A stretch of DNA of 25,688 nt from a virus (IMGVR_UViG_2627853701_000015); one strand, 5' to 3'; positions 1 through 25,688 are shown, counted from the stretch's first letter. The notes: generated from the letters alone by a model not told the origin. Numbers and translations are program-made.

Positions 1-900
1 ATGAAAATCGATCTTAATCTTTTACCCATTTTTATCGCGGTAGCAGAAGAGAGTAATTTTAGTAAAGCCGCCGCACGGCTGGGCGTTACCCGTTCAGCGG
101 TCAGTCAGGGAATAAGACGCCTTGAAGATGCATTCGGGACAATGCTTGTAATGCGGACCACGCGCTCAGTTAATTTGACAGAAGCGGGAGAACGGCTGCA
201 TAAATCGCTGTCATTACCTTTATCCGGTATTGAGGCAGCGTTCGAAGAGATGGTTTCTGACCATGTGCCACGCGGACTTCTCAGAATCGCGGTGACGTCA
301 ATAGCTGAAGAATTTCTTTCAGGTCCGCTAATCGCTTCGTTTGCAGCAGCCAATCCAGCCGTTACGCTTGATATTGTTGTCACGGATGAGGAATTCGATA
401 TCGTGGCCGCAGGTTACGATGCTGGCGTAAGGCTCGGAGAGGTCATTGAAAAAGACATGATTGCTGTGCCCCTTACCGGCAGGCAGCGTGAAATGGTCGT
501 TGCCTCTCCCTCCTATCTCGCAGCCAACAGCACACCTGTTCATCCGCGTGAACTTGTGAATCATAAGTGTATCGGCTGGCGTCAGTCCCCGGAGGTTGCG
601 CCTTATCGCTGGCCATTTGAAGAAAACGGGAGAGCTTTCGACCTTGCGATTGAACCGCAGATTACGACTAATGATCTGCGTCTGATGTTGAGGCTGGCTC
701 TTGCCGGCGGAGGAATAACAATTGCCACTCAGGAAACTTTCAGGCCGTATATTGAAAGCGGTAAGCTTGTATCTCTGCTTGATGACTTTCTTCCACAATT
801 TCCGGGCTTCTATCTGTATTTCCCACAGCGTCGCAATATTGCACCAAAGCTCCGCGCTCTGATTGACCACGTTAAGGAATGGCGGCAGCAATTGGCTTAA
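1..900 (+). CDS. LysR-family transcriptional regulator
   Basis: 299-aa ORF with N-terminal helix-turn-helix 'LLPIFIAVAEESNFSKAAARLGVTRSAVSQGIRRLE' typical of LysR-type regulators, then a co-inducer-binding-sized domain; ~50% GC; lies outside the proposed satellite boundary. Confidence 0.85.
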   Translation: MKIDLNLLPIFIAVAEESNFSKAAARLGVTRSAVSQGIRRLEDAFGTMLVMRTTRSVNLTEAGERLHKSLSLPLSGIEAAFEEMVSDHVPRGLLRIAVTSIAEEFLSGPLIASFAAANPAVTLDIVVTDEEFDIVAAGYDAGVRLGEVIEKDMIAVPLTGRQREMVVASPSYLAANSTPVHPRELVNHKCIGWRQSPEVAPYRWPFEENGRAFDLAIEPQITTNDLRLMLRLALAGGGITIATQETFRPYIESGKLVSLLDDFLPQFPGFYLYFPQRRNIAPKLRALIDHVKEWRQQLA

Positions 901-1026
901 ATGTCTGCACCTGCATTGCCTGATGTCAGAACAGTATTTTGATTAATTGCCAGGGTTACAATGGCACAAATGCGGCACAGGAGGAAACGTGGTGTATTTA
1001 AATATGGGGTAACTACTTGATTTAAA

Positions 1027-1045
1027 TGGTGCGATAATAGGAACC
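1027..1045. repeat. degenerate direct copy of the tRNA-Thr 3' end; candidate distal att repeat of the P4-type element
   Basis: TGGTGCGATAATAGGAAC here versus TGGTGCCGATAATAGGAG at 13820-13837, same orientation, one indel and one mismatch by eye. Confidence 0.3.
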
Positions 1046-1575
1046 AATAATCGCCACCAACACAATGATTTTAATACATAAATTAAAATAGAAGATTTAA
1101 ACTACACACACCCCTATACACATTGGTGAAGGCGTTCGCTTTCCGCGCATTCTCAAGGCAGAAAAAACTTTTTTTGGGGGATAACTGTTCATACTACTCA
1201 TTGTGTTTTTTTTCATTAATATTCAAAAAGATATGAAATTAACGATTGATAAGAAGTGAACACTTTACTGTTCACCTTGACTGATTAATAAGTGCATAAA
1301 AACCTAATTTTTGAGCACGGAAGGTATTTGTTCCTTACCCCATTTTTTCTCTTTAGTCCAGTACAACAAAAAATGCGCCCAACAGAAAACTGTTTTGAAT
1401 TTAAATGCAATCGCTTTGTAGTGATTGTAACGTAAGTTGATTTGATGGGTGCGATTTTGTTTAGCGATAATGGTATGTTGTAAAAATCATTTCGTTGCAA
1501 TAAAATTGCATCGCTACATTTTATAGACAATATCAATTAAATTTTAATACTCATTATTAATTTTGAGGCTAACAA

Positions 1576-2532
1576 GTGACTAGTTATTCAAACTTTTCCA
1601 ATCAAATAAAAGAAACCATCAATAATAAATTCGATCATGAAATTCATGATTGGGACATTATAAAAAACTCAATCACAACTTTAATAAATAAAAATATCCA
1701 TGGTGCAGGTAGAAATATCGTTGATTTTATAGATTTAGGTAACTGGGATTTTATTTCAAACTTTTCCTTTGATGACTCTACAAGAAGACTTGAATTAGAG
1801 TGGCACCCCAATGATAAATTCCATATATATATTGAGTCCGTTGTGTTTGTCGAGTTTAATGACACTATATATGCTTTCTTAAAGGGATACTATCACAATC
1901 AGTTATCTCTAAATAGAATATATAATACAAAATGCTCTTCATGTTCATTTGAAAACTCAGGTTCTTATATGGTAGACGTTTATAGAACGGTTAAAAGAGT
2001 AAATGAGACAATCCAGACCCCAAATATAAATTGCTATACTACATGTATTTTAACAAGGCCCGCAAATGGTCATGTTACATCTACAGGCTTCTCACGAAAC
2101 CTCATGGATGCGATAAATATTTCATTAGCAGAGCACAAAATAGCCTCTTTACATAATGAAGTCATGAGTATTGAGGAATATGATCGTGATTCTTTACAAG
2201 AGAAAGGAAATACTGCCAGGAGATATTTAGAATATATTCTCATGCTTGTTAATATTCGTATAATGCATTTAAACAACGTTCAATACCAAGAGCAAATGCT
2301 AGGTAGTTTAGTTTCTGTTATTGAGGCTCTGGACTATGAACCATTAATGAAAAATGATGTTGAAATTACAAAGGACATCCTTAATGCTTGCAGCCACCAC
2401 GGGGGGGTTAGAATTGAAAAGAAAGATGTAATTTTTTCTTTGGAAGTTATTGAAAACTTAATTAAAGCCATAAAGAAAACCGACATAAATAAATTACAAC
2501 TCGATGGGATGTTTAAATCAATTCAAAAATAA
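1576..2532 (+). CDS. hypothetical protein, AT-rich accessory gene of unknown function
   Basis: 318-aa ORF with GTG start preceded by GAGG 7 nt upstream; ~30% GC against ~50% flanks; convergent with the alpha gene; no motif I can assign. Confidence 0.6.
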   Translation: MTSYSNFSNQIKETINNKFDHEIHDWDIIKNSITTLINKNIHGAGRNIVDFIDLGNWDFISNFSFDDSTRRLELEWHPNDKFHIYIESVVFVEFNDTIYAFLKGYYHNQLSLNRIYNTKCSSCSFENSGSYMVDVYRTVKRVNETIQTPNINCYTTCILTRPANGHVTSTGFSRNLMDAINISLAEHKIASLHNEVMSIEEYDRDSLQEKGNTARRYLEYILMLVNIRIMHLNNVQYQEQMLGSLVSVIEALDYEPLMKNDVEITKDILNACSHHGGVRIEKKDVIFSLEVIENLIKAIKKTDINKLQLDGMFKSIQK

Positions 2533-2635
2533 ACATCATCTAACAATGAATTAGATGCATTTTCCGCTGACGCCTTAGCATATAACTTTTAAATTTTATC
2601 GATATATATTTTGAGATAATTTCCTGTAGCGGATT

Positions 2636-2658
2636 TAAGACCGGCACAGCCGGTCTTA
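2636..2658. terminator. 10-bp-stem hairpin between convergent genes, possible bidirectional terminator
   Basis: TAAGACCGGC-ACA-GCCGGTCTTA perfect inverted repeat between the stop at 2532 and the alpha stop at 2665; no clear U-tract on either side. Confidence 0.35.
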
Positions 2659-2664
2659 GGTCAG

Positions 2665-4998
2665 TTATTTCGCTGCAAACTCATCGCATTTTGGCAACCA
2701 GTCAGCATTGCTTTCCTCTCTTAGGGCCAGATTAGTCTGCATTCCTTGATTGGTCCGTCGTTTCTCATACTGCAGCCCATATTCCTTGAGCATTAACGGT
2801 AGCCCCTTGCCAAACATGGTCAGACTGAGCGTATTTTTATAGCCGTTAGCCTCCATGTAGACCAGATAGGCATGGTAGAGGTAAGTTCGAGGCTGACGTG
2901 GAACAATATTAGCGTTCCCCATAAACATGCCCGTGGTGTCAGGTAGGACCTCAAGGTAGCCGCAAAAATCAAAAGCTGAATCAGCATCACGTTTGATGGT
3001 GAGCGCTTCATCGGAGTTCTGCTGTGACTGAAGCAATGTCCTGGCACTCATTGGGTCGCTGAAACGCTGCATAAGCTGGCGAACAATCACCGCTAGCTCA
3101 CTGGCAATTTTCTCTTTGAGCTGGGTATCGCGTTCCTCCGGGGCTATCTGGTCGGGGAAATGCAGGATCACCCTTCGGCGTGAAACTCCACCACTACGAT
3201 CAGTGAAGCGCATCGGATTATTGTTCACAGCCAGGATGACCGCCGGGATGTGGGTTGAATAGGCGTTCTGATATTTGGGATCAACGGATACCGCATCGCC
3301 GCCAGTGATGGCTTTTAGTCCGGCCCCGTCACCGCTCCACTTTTCCTGGTCGGGAAGTCGAATCAGTGAAAAACCTATTAACGCAGCTCGTTCTCTTGGC
3401 GACTCAAGCATTTCAATGGTTGCCGAGGTCGCGTTATCTTCACCCGCCAGCATGGTTGCTATTTCAGCAAGAATACTCTTTCCACTTCCGCCAGGGCCAG
3501 TGACCTCCAGAAACAGCTGCCAGTCATAACGGTTAGCCAGCACCATAAACAATGCAGCCAGAATAATGTCCCGTTTTTCAGGATTAAAACCTGCGGCACG
3601 ATCCAGCCAGCGCCAGAATGCCGGGGCATGGGTTTCCAGTGACTCACCGTCAACGGGCTGCGTGTAATCCACCTCGCACAGCGTACGTAACCAGTGCTTC
3701 TTATCGTGCGGGCTGAACAATCCTGTCCGGGTATCGAGCACACCGTTGCGAAATCCGATAAGTTGCCGCGCCGGATTCTGCTGTTGCGGAACGATCAGTT
3801 TGAGGGTTTCCACGAGAGACGCAATTTTCGCGGATGAAAAAGGTGCGTCGAGGCGCTGAAACAGCGCAGCGACATCACGGGCAAAATCGGCGTAATAGAT
3901 AACTTTCCAGGCCCCCGCCTCATAGCGTGAAAGGAGCTGCCCGTTCGGGTCTACTGCCAGTGAATTTTTATAGTGATCCACTACCCTCTGCGCTTTTTCG
4001 CTGACGCTCAGCGCGGTAAATTCAGCTTCGCTCATTGTGTCGAAGGGGCTGGCAACAGCTGGTTTTATTACTTCATGAATTGCATGCCGGGTGGCTTCTT
4101 CGCCGTTTTGCGTGAATGCATCGTTCCAGTCACCAAACACAGGCGGGAGCGCCATTGTGCAATTGCAGGCCCCGGTAACAGCTGCGCCCCTTGTTTGCCC
4201 CGCACCGTTGAGATCGCGGTCAGCAGCAATAATTATCTGGTGCGTTGGGTACTCACTGCAGGCAATGCTCGCCAGGGAAAGGAAATTGACGGACGAAAAG
4301 GCCACCATGACAGCATCGCCAGTCAGATAGTTGATAGTAAGTGCGGTGGCATATCCTTCCGCTATCCAGAGCCGTTTGGCTGCTTTGGCAGTACCTTCAA
4401 CCAGGTAAAAGGCATTCTTAACCTGACCGCCTTTAAGGAAGCATTTGCCCCCATTAGCGTTGATTAACTGCAGATTTACCAGCTCTCCATCTGCATACAA
4501 TGGAACGACAAGATCTCCCGCGCGAAATGCCACACCACCGACTTTATGCATAGCGGTTAATTCCCGGCAAGGCAGTGCAGGAAACCCTTTACTCGTCAGA
4601 TAGGCATTGCCAGTGGTCTGGCGGGACTTATCAAACAAACGGGCAGCCAGCACTGCTGCAGCTTTTCTCCCGTCCTCTTTTTCAGGAGAACCAGATTCAA
4701 GCATTCCCTGAGATACTGGCAGCAGGTTTCCGATAATGCCGTTTATTCTGTCTGCCGCTTCACTAATGCCTACATCCAGTACTTTACTTACAAGCGCCAG
4801 GCCATCACCTGCCCCGCACTGGTTACAGAACCACGTTCCCCGCCCTTCCTGGTCATCAAATCGAAAGCGGTCTTTCCCGGCACAGACCGGGCAGGGCTGG
4901 TGCCGATTTTTCAGTACATTTACGCCCAGCGCAGGTAAAATTCTTGACCAGTGACCCCGAGCTGCTTTCTCAGCCTGGCTAACTTTCATTCCTGACAT
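2665..4998 (-). CDS. P4 alpha-type DNA primase/helicase
   Basis: Zinc-binding 'CPVCAGKDRFRFDD...CNQCG' N-terminus, primase-sized central region, Walker A 'GPGGSGKS' helicase C-terminal half. Start placed at the internal ATG (MSGMKVSQ...) with AAGGAGG 8 nt upstream; the ORF track extends to 5055. Confidence 0.9.
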   Translation of the reverse strand: MSGMKVSQAEKAARGHWSRILPALGVNVLKNRHQPCPVCAGKDRFRFDDQEGRGTWFCNQCGAGDGLALVSKVLDVGISEAADRINGIIGNLLPVSQGMLESGSPEKEDGRKAAAVLAARLFDKSRQTTGNAYLTSKGFPALPCRELTAMHKVGGVAFRAGDLVVPLYADGELVNLQLINANGGKCFLKGGQVKNAFYLVEGTAKAAKRLWIAEGYATALTINYLTGDAVMVAFSSVNFLSLASIACSEYPTHQIIIAADRDLNGAGQTRGAAVTGACNCTMALPPVFGDWNDAFTQNGEEATRHAIHEVIKPAVASPFDTMSEAEFTALSVSEKAQRVVDHYKNSLAVDPNGQLLSRYEAGAWKVIYYADFARDVAALFQRLDAPFSSAKIASLVETLKLIVPQQQNPARQLIGFRNGVLDTRTGLFSPHDKKHWLRTLCEVDYTQPVDGESLETHAPAFWRWLDRAAGFNPEKRDIILAALFMVLANRYDWQLFLEVTGPGGSGKSILAEIATMLAGEDNATSATIEMLESPRERAALIGFSLIRLPDQEKWSGDGAGLKAITGGDAVSVDPKYQNAYSTHIPAVILAVNNNPMRFTDRSGGVSRRRVILHFPDQIAPEERDTQLKEKIASELAVIVRQLMQRFSDPMSARTLLQSQQNSDEALTIKRDADSAFDFCGYLEVLPDTTGMFMGNANIVPRQPRTYLYHAYLVYMEANGYKNTLSLTMFGKGLPLMLKEYGLQYEKRRTNQGMQTNLALREESNADWLPKCDEFAAK

Positions 4999-5011
4999 TG
5001 TGCGGCCCTCC

Positions 5012-5335
5012 TTAGTGCAGCGCTGGTTTGTTGAGGTGACGGGAACAAAGTTCATCCATGACCGTCATTCCGAGCAGTGAGAGAACCGGACAGGCTTTAA
5101 GCGGCCCCGACTCCATCAGATCCGAAAGCAACGCGCAGGCAATTTCCAGCCCTCTTTGCTGCCCATGCTGGCGCAGATAGAACCCTTCCAGCTCGCGGGC
5201 TATGGCATCTTCAAGTTCAGCGAGCGTCAGGCCGGAATAACGTTCCTGATGATTGCTTAGAGCCAGCCAGGCACAGGCAACGGCACGGCGATACAGAGCG
5301 GCACGAAGTGCCAGAAGAGATTCACAGCATATCAT
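5012..5335 (-). CDS. hypothetical protein in the alpA-alpha operon
   Basis: 107-aa ORF; its ATG overlaps the upstream ORF stop (ATGA at 5333-5337); same strand as alpA and alpha. Confidence 0.45.
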
Positions 5336-5556: not shown

Positions 5557-6110
5557 AGCGTCACCTCCCCGGCAGGCAGCCGTGCAGAAAGGGAGAGTAC
5601 ATAATCTCGGACTAGCAAACGGCGCGCGGAACGCTCATCGCAGGAGACAGTGCGAAGCATACAGATGCGGGGGTGAGTGTCAGCACGGCGGATTGCGGCA
5701 AACACAAAGACATATTGCGGGTGTGACGGGGTGAGGATTGTAGCCATGATGGCAGCCTCCAATAAGTAGCGGTTATTGCTACCACCGGAAACGCCAATTT
5801 CACTGGTGGCAGCCCGAACGGGGTTGGCGTAACCGGCCTTATTGGAAACCGGCCAGCCCGAAGGCTGCCCCGCCCGGACTACCATTATCTCGATAGAACC
5901 ATGGTGTAAGCATAAACACCACAGCCCTGAAAATGGTTGTGCCTGAGCTACGACGTAAAAAAAGACGCAAGGGGCGTCAATTGTCGCCAATAAGTTATAC
6001 GGAACGCCAATTCCGGCTGCCGATTTTGCGACAGCGGAAAAACTATACCTGGAAATGACGACAGTAAGCAAGCCAGAATAAAGGTATTTAATGTATGCAG
6101 GTATCATCAT
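5553..6110 (-). CDS. hypothetical protein, uncertain
   Basis: 185-aa ORF whose start overlaps the alpA stop (ATGA at 6107-6110) and whose stop overlaps the next start; odd composition, so it could be a shorter gene or partly non-coding. Confidence 0.35.
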
Positions 6111-6367: not shown

Positions 6368-7212
6368 TTATCTACCCTCTTTAATTTCCACAACAGTCCG
6401 GATGAATTTATCCGGGTTCAGGTAGTTCCTTATTATGTGTATATAAACCACCTGCGCACGCATTTTTTATTTAGCGTCACATATTGATTTTATGGAATTT
6501 AAAGCCCGATTAAACCATATAAAATGACATAATAAATACCATGCCTGCGGACTATAAATACAGGAGCATTAATAGGAACTACCATTCACCCAGGGTTTAC
6601 TATCCTATGGGTCATTGCACCTGATAGTGCTAACCCCACCGCCAATACAGCAAGGCAGTACAACTTCTACACGAGGCCTTGCATTGCAGGCCCCAATTTC
6701 CGGGCATATTTTTGAATCGCATCCAACTTATAAACATTGGGCCTGCATAAAAACCTTGATATTAAATAACATCACCTTAAATCGTAAAATATATCCGAAT
6801 GAATCCATAAAGAACCGGACAGATCTAGTTTTATAAAAATCAGTATGAAATGCAACACCATGGCCAGAGGCGAAAATGTTATTCCCCGGCAAAAACATGC
6901 AGTCTATTTATGTGCCTGTTGAATACTCCTGAATAAGGGTGAATAGTGGTGAGGAGCAAAAAACAAATAGCTACGAGGAATAAAAAAACCACCCATTATG
7001 AAAAAATACCATAAATAATTTTATTCCCATGTGAACAGTTATGAACAGTCGATGAATACTGCCATGCCAACCCTTCACCTTATAACCTTCTGTATTACCT
7101 ATTTTTTTTACCTAAGTGAATAGTAGTGAATAGTTAAGGTAAGTCTGAAACAGCCTTAGTTAAACGAGGCCTTTTCTGGCTAGCCAAAAGAGGTCCGGGG
7201 CGGTTCAGTCTT

Positions 7213-19041: not shown

Positions 19042-19835
19042 TATTTAGCCCTCACCAGAAAGTTAAATGCAATATTTCGCGGTCTGACTGCAACAAAATT
19101 CACACCATCACCCACAGAGTTACTGGTGAAATTAAATCGTGAAAATCCTGGCTGATTTCCGGCGATGCCATCATGAAAGTTAATTGCGTGTCCCGCACCT
19201 TCGCCTATATTCCCGGCAAACTGAGAAAAGTTTGTAGCTGCCTGCCAGCTTAATAATTCGCGACCACCGTCTGCACCTCGCCCGTCATCCCAGATACGAA
19301 TGAAATCACCGCGGGCTTCAGGTAATACCAGCGAAGGAAACACTTTCGCCAGCACAGGATAATCAGTGGCAGAGAATTTCGCGCCGTTGAACTTCAAAAA
19401 CACCATACAGGACCAGCTGTCGATTACAGTATTTGGCATTGCAGCGGACGGCCAGAAGAACGGAACGCCAATAGCTGGAGCACCTTCTCCCAAACCAAGG
19501 TTTTGAAGAGCCGTTTTCACCGTGCCGTCCGATTTGATATCGCCAAACGGATTCTTGCGGCTCAGGTATTCAACAGCAAACCCCGATCCCAGCAATTCAA
19601 CAAAACCGGGCAGATCACCATTATCAAGCACATCCCGTTGCGTTTTATCACTTACAAACTGGGCCAGAGCTGCAGCAATAAAGCTGGCCTGCCGAATAAC
19701 CTTATTGACTTGCGCACTGGATGCTTTCCCTGCTGTAAATCCGGATATAAGCGCAGGCAACGCTTCCCATTCCTCCTGCGACATAACATTGGCATTTCGA
19801 TCAGTTGCAAACGCTTTAAAGTCATTTTTCGCCAT
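19041..19835 (-). CDS. side tail fibre protein, constant N-terminus joined to the currently expressed variable C-terminus
   Basis: 265 aa from 'MAKNDFKAF...'; the crossover site at 19485-19510 lies inside the gene, so the C-terminal ~150 aa belong to the invertible segment. Confidence 0.7.
19485..19510. repeat. invertase crossover site, right
   Basis: TTCTCCCAAACCAAGGTTTTGAAGAG; its reverse complement matches the site at 17627-17652 at ~21 of 26 positions. Confidence 0.65.
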
Positions 19836-20146
19836 CAGAGTAATACTCCCCATGCCCCTACATCAAAACCACTGATGAATTCGTTATCCATATCAAAACC
19901 AAAAAATTTAGAGCCTTCCGATGGAGTTTCCACCGAAGGTGTTTCAATGCCCCCCGCCCATACCCCGGCGGCTTTTACTGTTAGATACCCCTGTTTAATT
20001 GCCGCAATTAACTCACGCGATACATCTGAAATATCAGTATCAGGAAAGACCCAGACCGATATCGTCATGTCCTGGTTATCGATGTTGGCGATCCGACGCA
20101 TCTGCTCACGGTCAAAGTTAACCATCTGTGCGGCGATGTTTTTCAT
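19835..20146 (-). pseudogene. lambda P-type gene truncated after ~21 codons and fused to the 3' end of a tail-module gene
   Basis: 'MKNIAAQMVNFDREQMRRIAN' matches the lambda P N-terminus as I recall it, with ATGA overlap to O; the rest is unrelated and ends at the fibre start. Confidence 0.6.
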
Positions 20147-21042
20147 AAATCCACCCCGTAAATCCAGTCAGTGTTTGTCAGGTCGAGTTTTGGTTTGCTG
20201 GCTGTCACGCCTGCCTGTTGCTTGTTACGGTTGATTTCGAGCTGGGTCCACTTGTCGCGGAGTTTGGCCGGACTCAGCACGTTACCGGACCAGAAGTTGT
20301 CCTGGCAGGCCCAGCGGAAAAGCACACACATATCGCGGTGGTTACGTCCGTCACGTTCACGCATCAGGCGGATATCGTTAGCCCACCCAGCAAAATTCGG
20401 TTTTCTGGCTGATGGCGCGATGGTCTTCACCATGTCAAACATCCACTCTGCGGCGGTCAGGTCTTCTGCTGTTCCCCACTTGCTGCCGCTCTGAATTGCA
20501 GCATCCGGTTTAACCACAGAAAGATCGTTTTCTGGCTGGTCAGAGGATTCGCCAGAATTCTCGGACGAATAATCTTTTCTTTTTTCTTTTGTAATAGTGT
20601 CTTTTGTGTCCCCCTGTTTTGAGGGATAGCAATCCCCCAATTTGAGGGATGTTTTATCCCTCGTTTTAGGGGATTTTCCCTCGTTTTGAGGGATACACCA
20701 TTCTGAGATGTTTTTATTTGGTCCAAACATGCCGCCTTGCTGCTTGATAATATTCATTCTGACGAGTTCTAACTTGGCTTCATTGCACCGTTTGACAGGT
20801 AACTTTGTAATCTCGCTAAGTTGAGAATCGGTGATTCTGTCCATTGGTTTATTCCACCCATAGGTTTTACGCAGAATGGCAAGCAGCACTTTAAACTGTC
20901 GCTTGGTCAGATCTGCGCCCGAATAAGCCTCAAGCAGCATATTTGATAGTCTGGCGTAACCATCATCGAGATCTGCCACATTACGCTCCTGTCCGGCAAA
21001 GTTACCTCTGCCGAAGTTGAGTATTTTTGCTGTATTTGTCAT
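20143..21042 (-). CDS. O: lambda O-type replication initiator
   Basis: 299 aa 'MTNTAKILNFGRGNFAGQERNVADLDDGYARL...' matches lambda O as I recall it; the iteron array lies inside the gene. Confidence 0.9.
   Translation of the reverse strand: MTNTAKILNFGRGNFAGQERNVADLDDGYARLSNMLLEAYSGADLTKRQFKVLLAILRKTYGWNKPMDRITDSQLSEITKLPVKRCNEAKLELVRMNIIKQQGGMFGPNKNISEWCIPQNEGKSPKTRDKTSLKLGDCYPSKQGDTKDTITKEKRKDYSSENSGESSDQPENDLSVVKPDAAIQSGSKWGTAEDLTAAEWMFDMVKTIAPSARKPNFAGWANDIRLMRERDGRNHRDMCVLFRWACQDNFWSGNVLSPAKLRDKWTQLEINRNKQQAGVTASKPKLDLTNTDWIYGVDL
20608..20696. repeat. ori-lambda iterons
   Basis: Four ~19-bp repeats of TCCCTCnnnnTGAGGGA type with an adjacent AT-rich tract (20570-20605), inside O. Confidence 0.8.
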
Positions 21043-21486: not shown

Positions 21487-21696
<210 letters not shown>

Positions 21697-21784: not shown

Positions 21785-22501
<717 letters not shown>

Positions 22502-22628
22502 TAGGAAGTAAGTTTTATGTTGACGGCACAGTCAACTTGGCATAGATTAATTAAACCAAGCCCAGCCCCGTTCGCAGACAATTGTTAATATCTGCATAAC
22601 GGCTCTGGGCTATTTTTTTGGGACTCTT

Positions 22629-22983
22629 ATGAAGAAAGCAGCAATTTTAATTGATGCGGGTTTTTTCATGCAGCGTGTTCATGCTACGCATCGTAAACAC
22701 TTCGCCGAGCATGAACTGACTGCGCAATGCATAATGAAAGTAATATGGTCAATGGTTCTTTCCCATCTTAATGGAAAACGTCAATCACAAGAACGTAGGG
22801 AACCGCTTGAGCTTTATAGAATTTACTTCTATGACTGTCCACCACTCGACATTCAAACACGCCTTCCACTTCCTGAGCCTGGCAATAAGACGCCTGGTCG
22901 CAAGAATTTCAAACTCGAAAAATCATATATTCTGAGAACGGAGCTGCATGAAGAGTTAAGAAAAACTCGAAAAACAGCCATAA
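22629..22983 (+). pseudogene. gene at the rexA position downstream of cI, interrupted by IS629
   Basis: 118 native codons run into the IS left end at 22984; joining across the IS gives ~153 aa; no resemblance to RexA that I can see. Confidence 0.5.
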
Positions 22984-23037
22984 TGAACCGCCCCGGAAAT
23001 CCTGGAGACTAAACTCCCTGAGAAAGAGGTAAACAGG

Positions 23038-23364
23038 ATGACTAAAAATACTCGTTTTTCCCCCGAAGTCCGTCAGCGGGCGATTCGTATGGTTCTGGAA
23101 AGTCAGGATGAATATGACTCACAGTGGGCGGCAATTTGTTCCATTGCCCCAAAGATTGGCTGTACGCCGGAGACTCTGCGTGTCTGGGTTCGCCAGCATG
23201 AGCGGGATACCGGGGGCGGTGATGGTGGGCTCACCAGCGCTGAACGTCAGCGTCTGAAAGAGCTGGAACGTGAAAATCGTGAACTGCGCCGCAGTAACGA
23301 TATCCTTCGCCAGGCTTCCGCTTATTTTGCGAAGGCGGAGTTCGACCGCCTCTGGAAAAAATGA
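23038..23364 (+). CDS. IS629 OrfA (HTH/leucine-zipper transposase subunit)
   Basis: 108 aa ending at the A6 slippery tract 'GGAAAAAATGA' typical of the IS3-family -1 frameshift. Confidence 0.85.
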
Positions 23365-24251
23365 TGCCACTGCTGGATAAGCTGCGTGAGCAGTACGGGG
23401 TCGGACCGGTATGCAGCGAACTGCATATTGCCCCGTCAACGTATTACCATTGTCAGCAACAGCGACATCATCCGGATAAACGCAGTGCCCGTGCGCAGCA
23501 CGACGACTGGCTGAAGAGAGAGATACAGCGCGTATACGATGAAAATCATCAGGTGTACGGTGTGCGTAAAGTCTGGCGTCAGTTGTTACGGGAAGGAATC
23601 AGGGTGGCCAGATGTACAGTGGCACGTCTCATGGCGGTTATGGGACTTGCCGGTGTTCTCCGGGGTAAAAAGGTCCGTACGACCATCAGCCGGAAAGCCG
23701 TTGCCGCAGGCGACCGCGTAAACCGTCAGTTCGTGGCAGAACGACCTGACCAGCTGTGGGTGGCTGATTTTACTTACGTCAGCACATGGCAGGGCTTCGT
23801 CTATGTGGCGTTTATCATTGATGTGTTTGCCGGATACATCGTGGGGTGGCGGGTCTCATCGTCTATGGAAACGACATTCGTGCTGGATGCGCTGGAGCAG
23901 GCGTTGTGGGCCCGTCGTCCGTCTGGCACCATCCATCACAGCGATAAAGGCTCTCAGTATGTGTCACTGGCCTATACGGAGCGACTAAAAGAAGCCGGAT
24001 TACTGGCATCAACAGGGAGTACAGGCGACTCGTATGACAACGCGATGGCTGAGAGCATCAATGGTCTTTACAAAGCGGAGGTAATACACCGTAAGAGCTG
24101 GAAAAACCGTGCAGAAGTGGAACTGGCCACACTAACGTGGGTGGACTGGTATAACAATCGACGATTGCTGGGAAGGCTGGGCCATACTCCTCCGGCAGAA
24201 GCAGAAAAAGCTTATTATGCTTCCATCGGAAACGATGATCTGGCAGCCTGA
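23361..24251 (+). CDS. IS629 OrfB (DDE transposase catalytic subunit)
   Basis: 296 aa; DDE region 'WVADFTYV...HHSDKGSQY...DNAMAES'; overlaps orfA in the -1 frame. Confidence 0.85.
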
Positions 24252-24423
24252 GTTCACAGATAAAACACTCTCCAGGAAACCCGGGGCGGTTCATAACCAA
24301 TTGTATTTATTTTAAAATTAATAGGTGCAACTCACTAAACAACGCAATTCTGATCTCTCGATCACCTCCCAAGCCACACAACCCTGCAAAAAATAAATCT
24401 ATATAAAAAACATACAGATAACC

Positions 24424-24483
24424 ATCTGCGGTGATAAATTATCTCTGGCGGTGTTGACACAAATACCACTAGCGGTGATACTA
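24424..24483 (+). promoter_or_regulatory. OL3-OL2-OL1 operators and PL promoter
   Basis: CATCTGCGGTGATAAAT, TATCTCTGGCGGTGTTG, TACCACTAGCGGTGATA with TTGACA -35 and GATACT -10, matching the lambda PL region. Confidence 0.85.
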
Positions 24484-24521
24484 AGCACATCAGCAGGACG
24501 CACTAACCACCATGAAGGTGA

Positions 24522-24552
24522 TGCTCTTAAAAATTAAGCCCTGAAGAAGGGC
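24522..24552 (+). promoter_or_regulatory. nutL (boxA-like plus boxB hairpin)
   Basis: TGCTCTTAA then GCCCTGAAGAAGGGC hairpin between PL and the N start. Confidence 0.6.
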
Positions 24553-24709
24553 AGCATTCAAAGCAGAAGGCTTTGGTGTGTGTGATACGAAACGAAGCAT
24601 TGGCCGGAAGTGCGAATCCGGATTAGCAGCCAATGTGCCATTGCGGGGTGTTTTCGTTCAGGACTACGACTCCCACACACAACCAAAGCTAACTAACAGG
24701 AGAATCCAG

Positions 24710-24823
24710 ATGGATGCACAAACACGCCGCCGCGAACGTCGCGCAGAGAAACAGGCTCAATGGAAAGCAGATCGGATTCTGGCTTCAACATTTCGCAGGA
24801 ATGCAACTAAGAGACATTACTGA
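24710..24823 (+). pseudogene. N antiterminator truncated after 20 codons by a deletion junction
   Basis: '[20 protein letters not shown]' matches the lambda N N-terminus; from 24771 the DNA is integrase-derived and the N frame stops after 17 unrelated codons. Confidence 0.7.
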
Positions 24824-25688
24824 ATCAAAAATTTATTCAGCAATGCAGAAAATGACGAACCGGCGTCATGAGGAAAACTGGAAACTCAGGGCAGAAGCAT
24901 GCAGAAAAAAAGGGAAACCTGTTCCAGAATACACGCCAAAACCAGCGTCCGTTGCAACGAAGGCTACGCATCTTTCATTTATAAAGGCCCTGCTAAGAGC
25001 CGCAGAGCGTGAATGGAAAATGCTCGATAAGGCACCAATTATTAAAGTGCCTCAACCAAAGAATAAACGGATCCGCTGGCTGGAGCCCCATGAAGCACAA
25101 AGGCTGATTGATGAATGTCCGGAGCCATTAAAGTCTGTTGTTGAATTTGCACTGGCAACAGGCTTAAGACGCTCGAACATCATCAACCTTGAATGGCAAC
25201 AAATAGATATGCAGCGCCGGGTGGCATGGATAAACCCGGAAGAGAGTAAATCAAACCGCGCAATTGGCGTTGCGCTGAATGATACTGCATGTCGCGTATT
25301 GAAAAAACAAATCGGTAATCATCACCGTTGGGTATTTGTGTACAAGGAAAGCTGTACCAAACCAGACGGAACGAAAGCGCCAACAGTAAGGAAGATGCGG
25401 TATGACGCAAACACAGCCTGGAAAGCGGCGCTGAGACGGGCTGGTATTGATGATTTCAGATTTCACGACTTGAGACACACCTGGGCAAGTTGGCTGGTTC
25501 AAGCCGGAGTCCCGTTGTCAGTGTTACAGGAAATGGGAGGCTGGGAGTCTATCGAAATGGTTCGTCGATATGCTCACCTTGCACCTAATCACCTTACCGA
25601 ACACGCACGGCAAATAGACTCGATCCTGAACCCATCGGTCCCAAATTTGTCCCAGTCAAAAAATAAGGAAGGTACTAATGATGTGTAA
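24771..25688 (+). pseudogene. N-terminally deleted tyrosine integrase (DLP12 IntD-like), runs off the window end
   Basis: '[18 protein letters not shown]...' onward resembles a lambdoid integrase from about residue 85, with catalytic '[10 protein letters not shown]...MVRRYAHL'; no native start, offset +1 from the N' frame. Confidence 0.75.

Follow-up and report, generated by a model that had tools for sequence, protein, structure and literature searches.

According to published accounts, IS629, the abundant IS3-family element of Escherichia coli O157 to which the element described in the literature as IS1203v is similar, is excised precisely in O157, and IEE is reported to raise the frequency both of precise IS629 excision and of IS-adjacent deletions at short microhomologies. 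The position considered here, between the repressor gene and PL of a prophage with lambda immunity, is occupied in lambda itself by rexA-rexB, which encode a sensor and a membrane protein, are non-essential accessory cargo of the prophage, and are co-transcribed with cI from PRM. Two further systems offer points of comparison, namely the PR' - 6S RNA - tR' arrangement of lambda and the type III toxin-antitoxin or abortive-infection systems (toxI repeats - terminator - toxN), mobile loci in which a promoter, a structured RNA with terminator, and an endoribonuclease gene follow each other. NYN-domain proteins, to be compared below, include MARF1, those of the LabA/VPA0982 type, and the defense candidate HEC-09, which did not confer protection when tested.

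The DNA analyzed here, referred to as the window, is a stretch of 25,688 nucleotides (viral contig IMGVR_UViG_2627853701_000015), of which positions 22,629 to 24,423 are shown above. Its source is an O157:H7 strain of the TW14359/EC4115 type, and it covers the immunity region of a prophage with lambda immunity that has decayed and adjoins thrW/proA. From their translations two of its ORFs are what we take to be lambda cI (21788-22501, plus strand, 237 amino acids; named LexA family protein in RefSeq) and the divergently oriented cro (21487-21687, minus strand; a Cro/CI family regulator in RefSeq). On the other side of the insertion the original DNA continues on the plus strand at 24297-24770, as judged from ORFs, homology and a consensus scan, with a spacer, OL and a PL promoter-like site (24454-24482, from the consensus scan), nutL boxB (24538-24552), and the start of N, of which the first approximately 20 codons remain (from 24711) before the frame is fused to an integrase fragment (24768-25688); PL, boxB and N are named by analogy with lambda.

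A preliminary description of this locus reported an insertion sequence within an ORF following cI; as an observation this is confirmed, while the interpretation attached to it is partly supported. Overall, the locus is a case of ordinary IS-associated decay in a cryptic prophage of E. coli O157:H7, in which IS629 is a bystander and nothing was inactivated by the IS itself. The finding is an ordinary IS629 polymorphism, of a kind already annotated, in a cryptic O157 prophage, and as one among many such polymorphisms the site lends little weight to the window itself; further work would be worthwhile only on the intact gene cassette found elsewhere, which is a reasonable candidate for an exclusion gene carried by prophages or plasmids. 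This reading as a whole, that is, decay in three steps of a locus that once carried a putative RNase as cargo, is very probably the correct one.

The insertion sequence is a complete IS629/IS1203 of 1310 bp (22984-24293, plus strand), as shown by its ends, its ORFs, Pfam and Rfam matches, and RefSeq annotation. It begins with TGAACCGCCCCGG and ends with CCGGGGCGGTTCA; its inverted repeats agree in all of the outermost 13 bases and in 22 of the 25 terminal ones, and the size of about 1.3 kb, the imperfect inverted repeats and the 5'-TG...CA-3' termini are those of the IS3 family. So are the overlapping reading frames, orfA with a helix-turn-helix domain (23038-23364, plus strand; Pfam HTH_Tnp_1) and orfB with a DDE integrase domain (23361-24251, plus strand; Pfam rve), with an ALIL pseudoknot for programmed -1 frameshifting at their overlap (23319-23435, plus strand; Rfam, 121.5 bits). 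An identical copy in O157 strain 06-3462 is called [quoted passage not shown] by RefSeq, and matches to the IS end occur at places in 1814 E. coli genomes. The element is flanked by TAA on the left (22981-22983) and on the right (24294-24296); since TAA occurs just once here in relatives without the interruption (...AACACATAACCAATTG...), the pair is a true target duplication, and its 3 bp are the length seen in the IS3 family. Exact alignment of ends and duplications thus bore out the complete IS3-family element with TAA repeats that had been described, and in its length, its ends, its frameshift signal with ALIL, and its 3-bp duplication it shows no essential difference from the IS629/IS1203 elements for which IEE-dependent excision has been studied.

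The ORF into which the IS was thought to have inserted does follow a lambda-type cI at the position, and in the orientation relative to cI and PL, that rexAB has in lambda, and it is correct that it does not encode RexA; Pfam searches at E <= 1 returned neither RexA nor RexB, NYN being the sole match of the intact protein while the remnant had none. In the window the current ORF (22629-23012, plus strand) encodes 127 amino acids, 117 of which are native, the remaining 10 being derived from spacer and IS end; RefSeq calls it either "PIN domain-containing protein" or "hypothetical protein". The native part (22629-22979, plus strand) was identified by allele alignment as codons 1-117 of a gene of 285 codons and is identical to the intact allele. 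Uninterrupted ORFs with one identical 285-residue product are present in phage EC.P3, in E. coli 14EC020, in O157:H7 strain LSU61, and in an O121:H19 Stx2a prophage; that of 14EC020 follows the same lambda cI as the window, while the LSU61 copy sits in another prophage. Comparison with a prophage having the same cI, proposed earlier as a way to find the intact allele, thus yielded a protein of 285 amino acids and not of about 153.

The latter length had come from removing the IS and one TAA in silico, which indeed leaves a frame that is open for 153 codons; this frame is, however, not the intact allele. Its last 36 codons are intergenic spacer upstream of OL, and neither it nor the remnant has a match in Pfam, the search of the reconstructed frame against profiles having been another of the checks proposed. 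At the site the intact gene reads GCC-TTAAG and the spacer CAC-ATAA-CCAATTG, and the four bases left of the IS, ATAA (22980-22983, including the left TAA; assigned by allele comparison), are the final 4 bp of the original spacer and not gene, so that the 153-codon frame is no restored gene. The remnant retains the invariant aspartates D9 and D69 and has lost D164, D170, D189 and D191 together with the entire stretch matched by Pfam NYN; with residues 1-117 only, the catalytic core is incomplete, and as four of the six invariant aspartates are gone the predicted product cannot be an active nuclease. The lesson is that in silico excision of an IS can produce a plausible but false gene where a deletion adjoins the element, and comparison with uninterrupted relatives is needed before such an excision is trusted.

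In comparison with 14EC020, 570 bp are missing from the window at a junction that can be placed to within 1 base (22979/22980); the missing bases are positions 4479-5048 of the 14EC020 locus (L002). Lost with them were codons 118-285 along with their stop codon, the terminator of the gene, and all of the spacer except the last 4 bp before the IS. Written side by side, the window reads ...AAAAACAGCC-ATAA-IS-TAA-CCAATTG, the intact gene ...AAAAACAGCC-TTAAG..., and the spacer ...AAAAACAC-ATAA-CCAATTG; both breakpoints lie directly after a copy of AAAAACA, with one C of microhomology in common, which would fit illegitimate or microhomology-mediated joining. Recombination between two IS copies and classical adjacent deletion from an IS end were both rejected as causes, for the 4 bp of original flank, target duplication included, are still in place at the element. 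In this the window differs from a typical excision-linked deletion: the deletion stops 4 bp short and the IS stays. A part played by the IS or by IEE in the deletion is suggested by proximity alone, since 4 bp separate the endpoint of the deletion from the tip of the IS.

The order of the two events was approached by searching O157 genomes for junctions of spacer and IS. Such junctions, reading ...AAAAACACATAA immediately followed by the IS, were found in six (NZRM4165, 472, F8492, AUSMDU00002545, ERL04-3476 and ERL05-1306), all of which have the full-length gene DNA and the identical IS at the same TAA of the same thrW/proA locus. There the element, with the same flanking TAA, lies 63 bp 3' of the gene's stop codon; in the two loci inspected in detail, NZRM4165 and strain 472, not one of the 1310 bases of its copy differs from that of the window, and flank identity is 99.8-99.9%. 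Because the same IS is found 63 bp past a full-length gene in six genomes, it must have landed in the spacer, with the deletion following later; the claim that the IS splits the ORF is contradicted by the same observation. The reverse order is disfavored, as it would require recombination within 4 bp. The six genomes also carry a 1-bp deletion at nucleotide 458 of the gene, a frameshift that was followed in detail in NZRM4165 and 472, and if the ancestor of the window shared it the gene may have been dead before the 570 bp were lost.

Around 100 other O157 genomes have a deleted gene and no IS, in three forms. One, AAAAACAGCCATAACCAATTG, is that of AR-0427 and equals both the exact excision product of the window and the sequence of the 153-codon frame; in strain 26_141088, AAAAACAGCC is joined directly to AATTG with a microhomology of CC; in Xuzhou21, 86-24 and ATCC 43894, AAAAACA is joined to CCAATTG. 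Their left breakpoints fall at most 3 bp from the deletion junction of the window, which argues that they derive from a window-type allele, and the direction of change is fixed by the GCC of the intact gene, which the window allele has kept and the shortest allele has lost. The site is thus variable among strains, as other IS629 sites in O157 are, and its IS-less alleles are either precise or carry small deletions flanked by microhomology; this pattern matches the reported IEE-promoted excision of IS629, in which case IEE would probably have taken part. AR-0427 could in principle also represent an ancestor that never had the insertion. In a census of 5426 complete E. coli genomes, 274 had the gene or a remnant of it: the full-length gene was present in 74 (68 without IS and the 6 with the IS downstream), the exact junction of the window in 91, TW14359 and EC4115 among them, and an IS-less deletion allele in about 100, a figure that is approximate.

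The history that connects these alleles starts from a self-contained cassette between cI and OL/PL composed of a promoter, a hairpin of the tR' type, the gene for a 285-residue NYN protein, and a terminator of its own. IS629 then transposed into a TAA of the spacer 63 bp past the stop codon, doubling the TAA, a stage documented by the six genomes. A deletion of 570 bp, evident from the alleles and probably brought about by the mechanism proposed above, next left the first third of the gene fused to the end of the IS, which is the state of the window. In the approximately 100 other genomes the IS was later lost, either precisely or together with 6-7 extra bases, probably by excision of the kind that IEE promotes. 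The order of alleles follows from the logic of their junctions and not from a phylogeny.

Two other histories deserve consideration. If a gene of about 153 codons had been intact and IS629 had gone straight into it, doubling a TAA inside, removal of the element would restore that gene, and the genuine TAA flanks, the open frame after excision, and the existence of precisely this IS-less sequence in AR-0427 are all as one would expect. Yet the allele that is intact has 285 codons, the frame in question runs out into the spacer upstream of OL, and its product lacks the NYN core along with any match in Pfam; the AR-0427 ORF is itself marked as frameshifted by RefSeq, and six genomes have the same IS beyond the 3' end of the full-length gene, so that there is next to no chance of this scenario being right. 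Alternatively, the 570-bp deletion could have come first, creating AAAAACAGCCATAACCAATTG, with IS629 inserting into its TAA, and the six genomes with gene and IS would go back to independent insertions. That order had initially been read from the A at 22980 together with AR-0427, in which the exact pre-insertion sequence does exist without the IS, and a simple insertion explains the TAA duplication equally well; it was dropped on account of the six genomes with full-length gene and IS. It would call for IS629 to have inserted twice independently, with one orientation and at one TAA of one prophage within a clonal serotype, which is far less likely than a single event, and for IS copies without a single difference in 1310 bases amid almost identical flanks; moreover, precise excision of IS629, documented for O157, suffices to explain AR-0427. 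We regard it as quite improbable.

Insertion into the spacer with later deletion, the history preferred here, leaves the question of whether what remains is still of use to O157, for instance as a dominant-negative product of 127 amino acids, as an RNA-binding fragment, or as a small RNA made from the leader. Such a function might seem to be favored by the 100% conservation, in the remnant, of promoter-like site, hairpin and codons 1-117, and by the protein that RefSeq still calls here. The recent clonal origin of O157, however, accounts for the high conservation, and the 3' end of the ORF has been changed in three ways in about 100 O157 genomes, as expected of a frame under no constraint; furthermore, no Hfq-bound small RNA is recorded for this prophage in O157 Sakai (Tree et al. 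2014, Table S2). A retained function is accordingly given only a very slight chance.

The intact 285-residue protein matches Pfam NYN (PF01936) over residues 158-205 with 36.8 bits (cut-off 24.2), and an AlphaFold model of mean pLDDT 86.6 predicts a PIN-like alpha/beta fold with clustered conserved aspartates. At E <= 1e-3 it has 7035 homologs; among the matches listed most are about 250-300 amino acids long, with a few shorter fragments, and those with a name are called "NYN domain-containing protein" or "nuclease". What sets the family apart from MARF1, proteins of the LabA/VPA0982 type and HEC-09 is a stretch of about 100 residues inserted between core segments one and two, as well as a conserved P..P.WW motif that precedes a basic tail. 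Searches for a closer assignment were negative: PADLOC-DB v2 gave sub-threshold matches only (HEC-09, to which the protein is distantly similar, E = 2e-4 and 19 bits; NYN, E = 1.4e-3 and 16 bits), each best match spanning only about 45 residues; the protein falls into PHROG 5783, for which PHROGs lists no function; its NCBIfam match is far under threshold; no relative in the PDB is detectable by sequence; and literature searches on NYN proteins with prophages or defense, and on rexAB hotspots, turned up nothing on this family. RefSeq splits the intact ORF in many genomes into a "pseudogene" and a 117-residue "NYN domain-containing protein", an annotation that hides a real gene.

The first 482 bases of the ORF are found not only in the 274 E. 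coli genomes mentioned above but also in 58 phage records, and the cassette they belong to is not tied to lambda immunity. Its left edge lies at 22498, where homology with phages of other immunity types begins; the match between the window and phage EC.P3, whose repressor is a different one, extends from 22498 to 22983 only, and the cassette is found behind different repressors in the comparison loci L019, L020 and L109. The NYN gene often lies behind the repressor, and it directly follows four repressors of the LexA type, those of lambda immunity, of the LSU61 prophage, of the O121 Stx2a prophage and of the P22-like Proteus phage Brookers. Elsewhere it is located between Q and the holin gene (Edwardsiella), adjoining int (P. 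syringae), beside BrnTA (Burkholderia phiE202), beside toxin-antitoxin pairs on plasmids of P. aeruginosa and Acinetobacter, and next to glmS (Proteus). The intact gene is an exchangeable single-gene accessory cargo cassette of prophages and plasmids, a distribution that would fit a part in conflicts between mobile elements. As accessory cargo that is not essential to the prophage it resembles rexAB, from which it differs in being one gene for a predicted nuclease rather than two genes for a sensor and a membrane protein.

The region between cI and the start codon of the NYN gene contains a consensus match to a sigma-70 promoter (TTGACG-17-TAGATT, 22520-22548, plus strand), with the -35 box inside the palindrome TTGACGGCACAGTCAA and a predicted start near 22555. 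Among 16 leaders compared, 13 from several genera have TTGAC at the same distance 5' of the hairpin described next; the exact motif is absent there in a P. aeruginosa plasmid and two Acinetobacter loci. The hairpin is a three-tier structure (22559-22611) with seven consecutive U after it (22613-22619), recognized on the plus strand by its fold (-26.5 kcal/mol, z = -3.1) and by a covariance model; it begins about 5 nt after the predicted transcription start, and 9 nt separate the last U from the start codon. The model (R1), built from five NYN leaders, scores 80.8 bits in the window and 46-84 bits ahead of the gene in 15 other genomes, and all relatives examined with a protein identity of about 47% or more have the hairpin directly 5' of the gene; at 42% identity there is a weaker match, and a search with R1 found no hairpin in a distant NYN subfamily that has no C-terminal extension. 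In an alignment of 15 sequences (A4) 93.3% of cells are paired, as against 27-46% in slid controls, and 11 of the 18 pairs show compensatory changes. Rfam contains no family for this hairpin.

A pattern scan of viral contigs, made without reference to the NYN gene, found this type of hairpin 120 times, and the NYN gene follows in 34 of these places; nearly all of the 86 others are one variant, identical to lambda 44715-44786, a segment between Q and S that scores 61 bits with R1. We take this to be the interval in which the 194-nt PR' transcript ends at tR'. With its G+C-rich stem, its U-run and its match to the covariance model, the leader hairpin is predicted to be an intrinsic terminator of the lambda tR' type; it belongs to one RNA family with the lambda sequence, both having a stem of three tiers, AAU.GUUA as loop motif, and a U-run. 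The likeness is confined to the terminator, there being none to PR'/qut beyond the promoter consensus, and the distance from promoter to hairpin is about 5 nt in the NYN leader but about 140 nt in lambda. The hairpin had also been considered as a new RNA motif or a type III antitoxin; both were rejected, since the same hairpin occurs without the gene and corresponds to lambda tR'. Resemblance to type III toxin-antitoxin systems, in which the order of promoter, structured RNA or terminator, and (here predicted) endoribonuclease gene is alike and which are likewise mobile, is one of layout only: the NYN leader is a single hairpin without tandem repeats, the predicted fold is NYN and not that of ToxN/AbiQ, and the hairpin type exists apart from the gene.

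A terminator of the tR' type between cI and the start codon would insulate the NYN gene from PRM and, as the promoter-like site lies upstream of it, expression of the gene would have to depend on read-through. Assignment of the ORF to the PRM transcription unit, as in the preliminary description, is for this reason doubtful; in contrast to rexAB, which is transcribed along with cI, the NYN gene lies behind its own promoter-like site and terminator and appears not to be simply a part of that unit.

From its sequence and predicted fold, the intact protein is probably a Mg-dependent RNase carried as cargo by prophages and plasmids and kept near-silent by the terminator in its leader. It may serve mobile elements in competing with one another, for instance through abortive infection or through exclusion, the latter as suggested earlier from its position; such a role is possible, at clearly less than an even chance. 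The unusual layout, with a tR'-type terminator between promoter and start codon, does lead to a concrete regulatory hypothesis, in which antitermination, or the RNA itself, would gate the cassette as a module for exclusion, or its product would be an RNase recognizing hairpins of the tR' type. In the gated version the nuclease may be made only when tR'-like termination is overridden, for instance by a phage antiterminator or by polymerase behaving differently in the course of infection or induction; in the other the RNase may bind both the hairpin of its own leader, resulting in autoregulation, and those in late transcripts of competing lambdoid phages. Either is rather unlikely as it stands. 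The dead copy in the window still has its leader.

Detailed inspection of the full-length NYN gene DNA in two of the six O157 genomes that retain it, NZRM4165 and strain 472 (L021 and L022), revealed the same 1-bp deletion in both, GATGATTTTT to GATG-TTTTT, located at about position 3077 of either locus (nt 458 of the gene); the reading frame is thereby shifted at codon 153. Because of this frameshift, loss of NYN gene activity in the O157 lineage may predate the 570-bp deletion. The 285-aa open reading frame is split by RefSeq in E. coli 14EC020 (L002, 4128-4985), in the prophages of O157:H7 LSU61 (L019, 6001-6858) and O121:H19 (L020, 5001-5858), and in NZRM4165 (L021, 2620-3476), the pieces being annotated as a pseudogene, “hypothetical protein, missing C-terminus”, and as an “NYN domain-containing protein” of 117 or 146 aa. 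The translation is unbroken in L002, L019 and L020, and the split looks like an artefact of annotation, possibly driven by the abundant truncated O157 protein.

The leader upstream of the gene (window 22520-22619) is still intact in the window copy. It consists of a promoter-like site, the -35 box of which is palindromic, followed by a three-tier hairpin with a U-run, which belongs to the lambda tR' terminator family; the leader ends 9 nt short of the NYN start codon. Its conservation, accompanied by compensatory changes, extends from E. coli to plasmids of Pseudomonas and Acinetobacter; Rfam contains no family that covers it.

Decay is also evident elsewhere in the same prophage. At 24711-25688, only about 20 codons of lambda N are left, and they run into the 3′ portion of a gene for a tyrosine integrase; tRNA-Thr (thrW) and proA come next in related genomes. 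Nothing of the PL operon is left between N and int; the prophage is therefore a defective remnant, in which cI, cro and OR/OL are still present. Further decay or mosaicism is apparent in the O/P replication-gene region (1311-2541 in locus L003; counterpart in the window at about 19800-21042): gene O carries a frameshift annotation in related O157 genomes, and of P there are only fragments, fused directly to tail-fibre genes.

A solitary 13-mer of the IS629 terminus, TGAACCGCCCCGG, is matched exactly on the minus strand at 7195-7207, where the adjoining IS body is absent; with 0.02 such matches expected by chance, it may be a scar left by an IS629 copy since lost or truncated. The right end of the IS and its flank are straddled by a hybrid promoter-like site, TTCATA-17-TAAAAT (24290-24318), which is directed at OL/PL and was recognized by consensus match only. 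Another prophage segment within the window carries, both on the minus strand, a C4 antisense RNA (5802-5889; Rfam, 84 bits) and the Hfq-binding RNA isrK (5958-6035; Rfam, 71.9 bits), which are components of an immunity region of the P1/P7 or Gifsy type.
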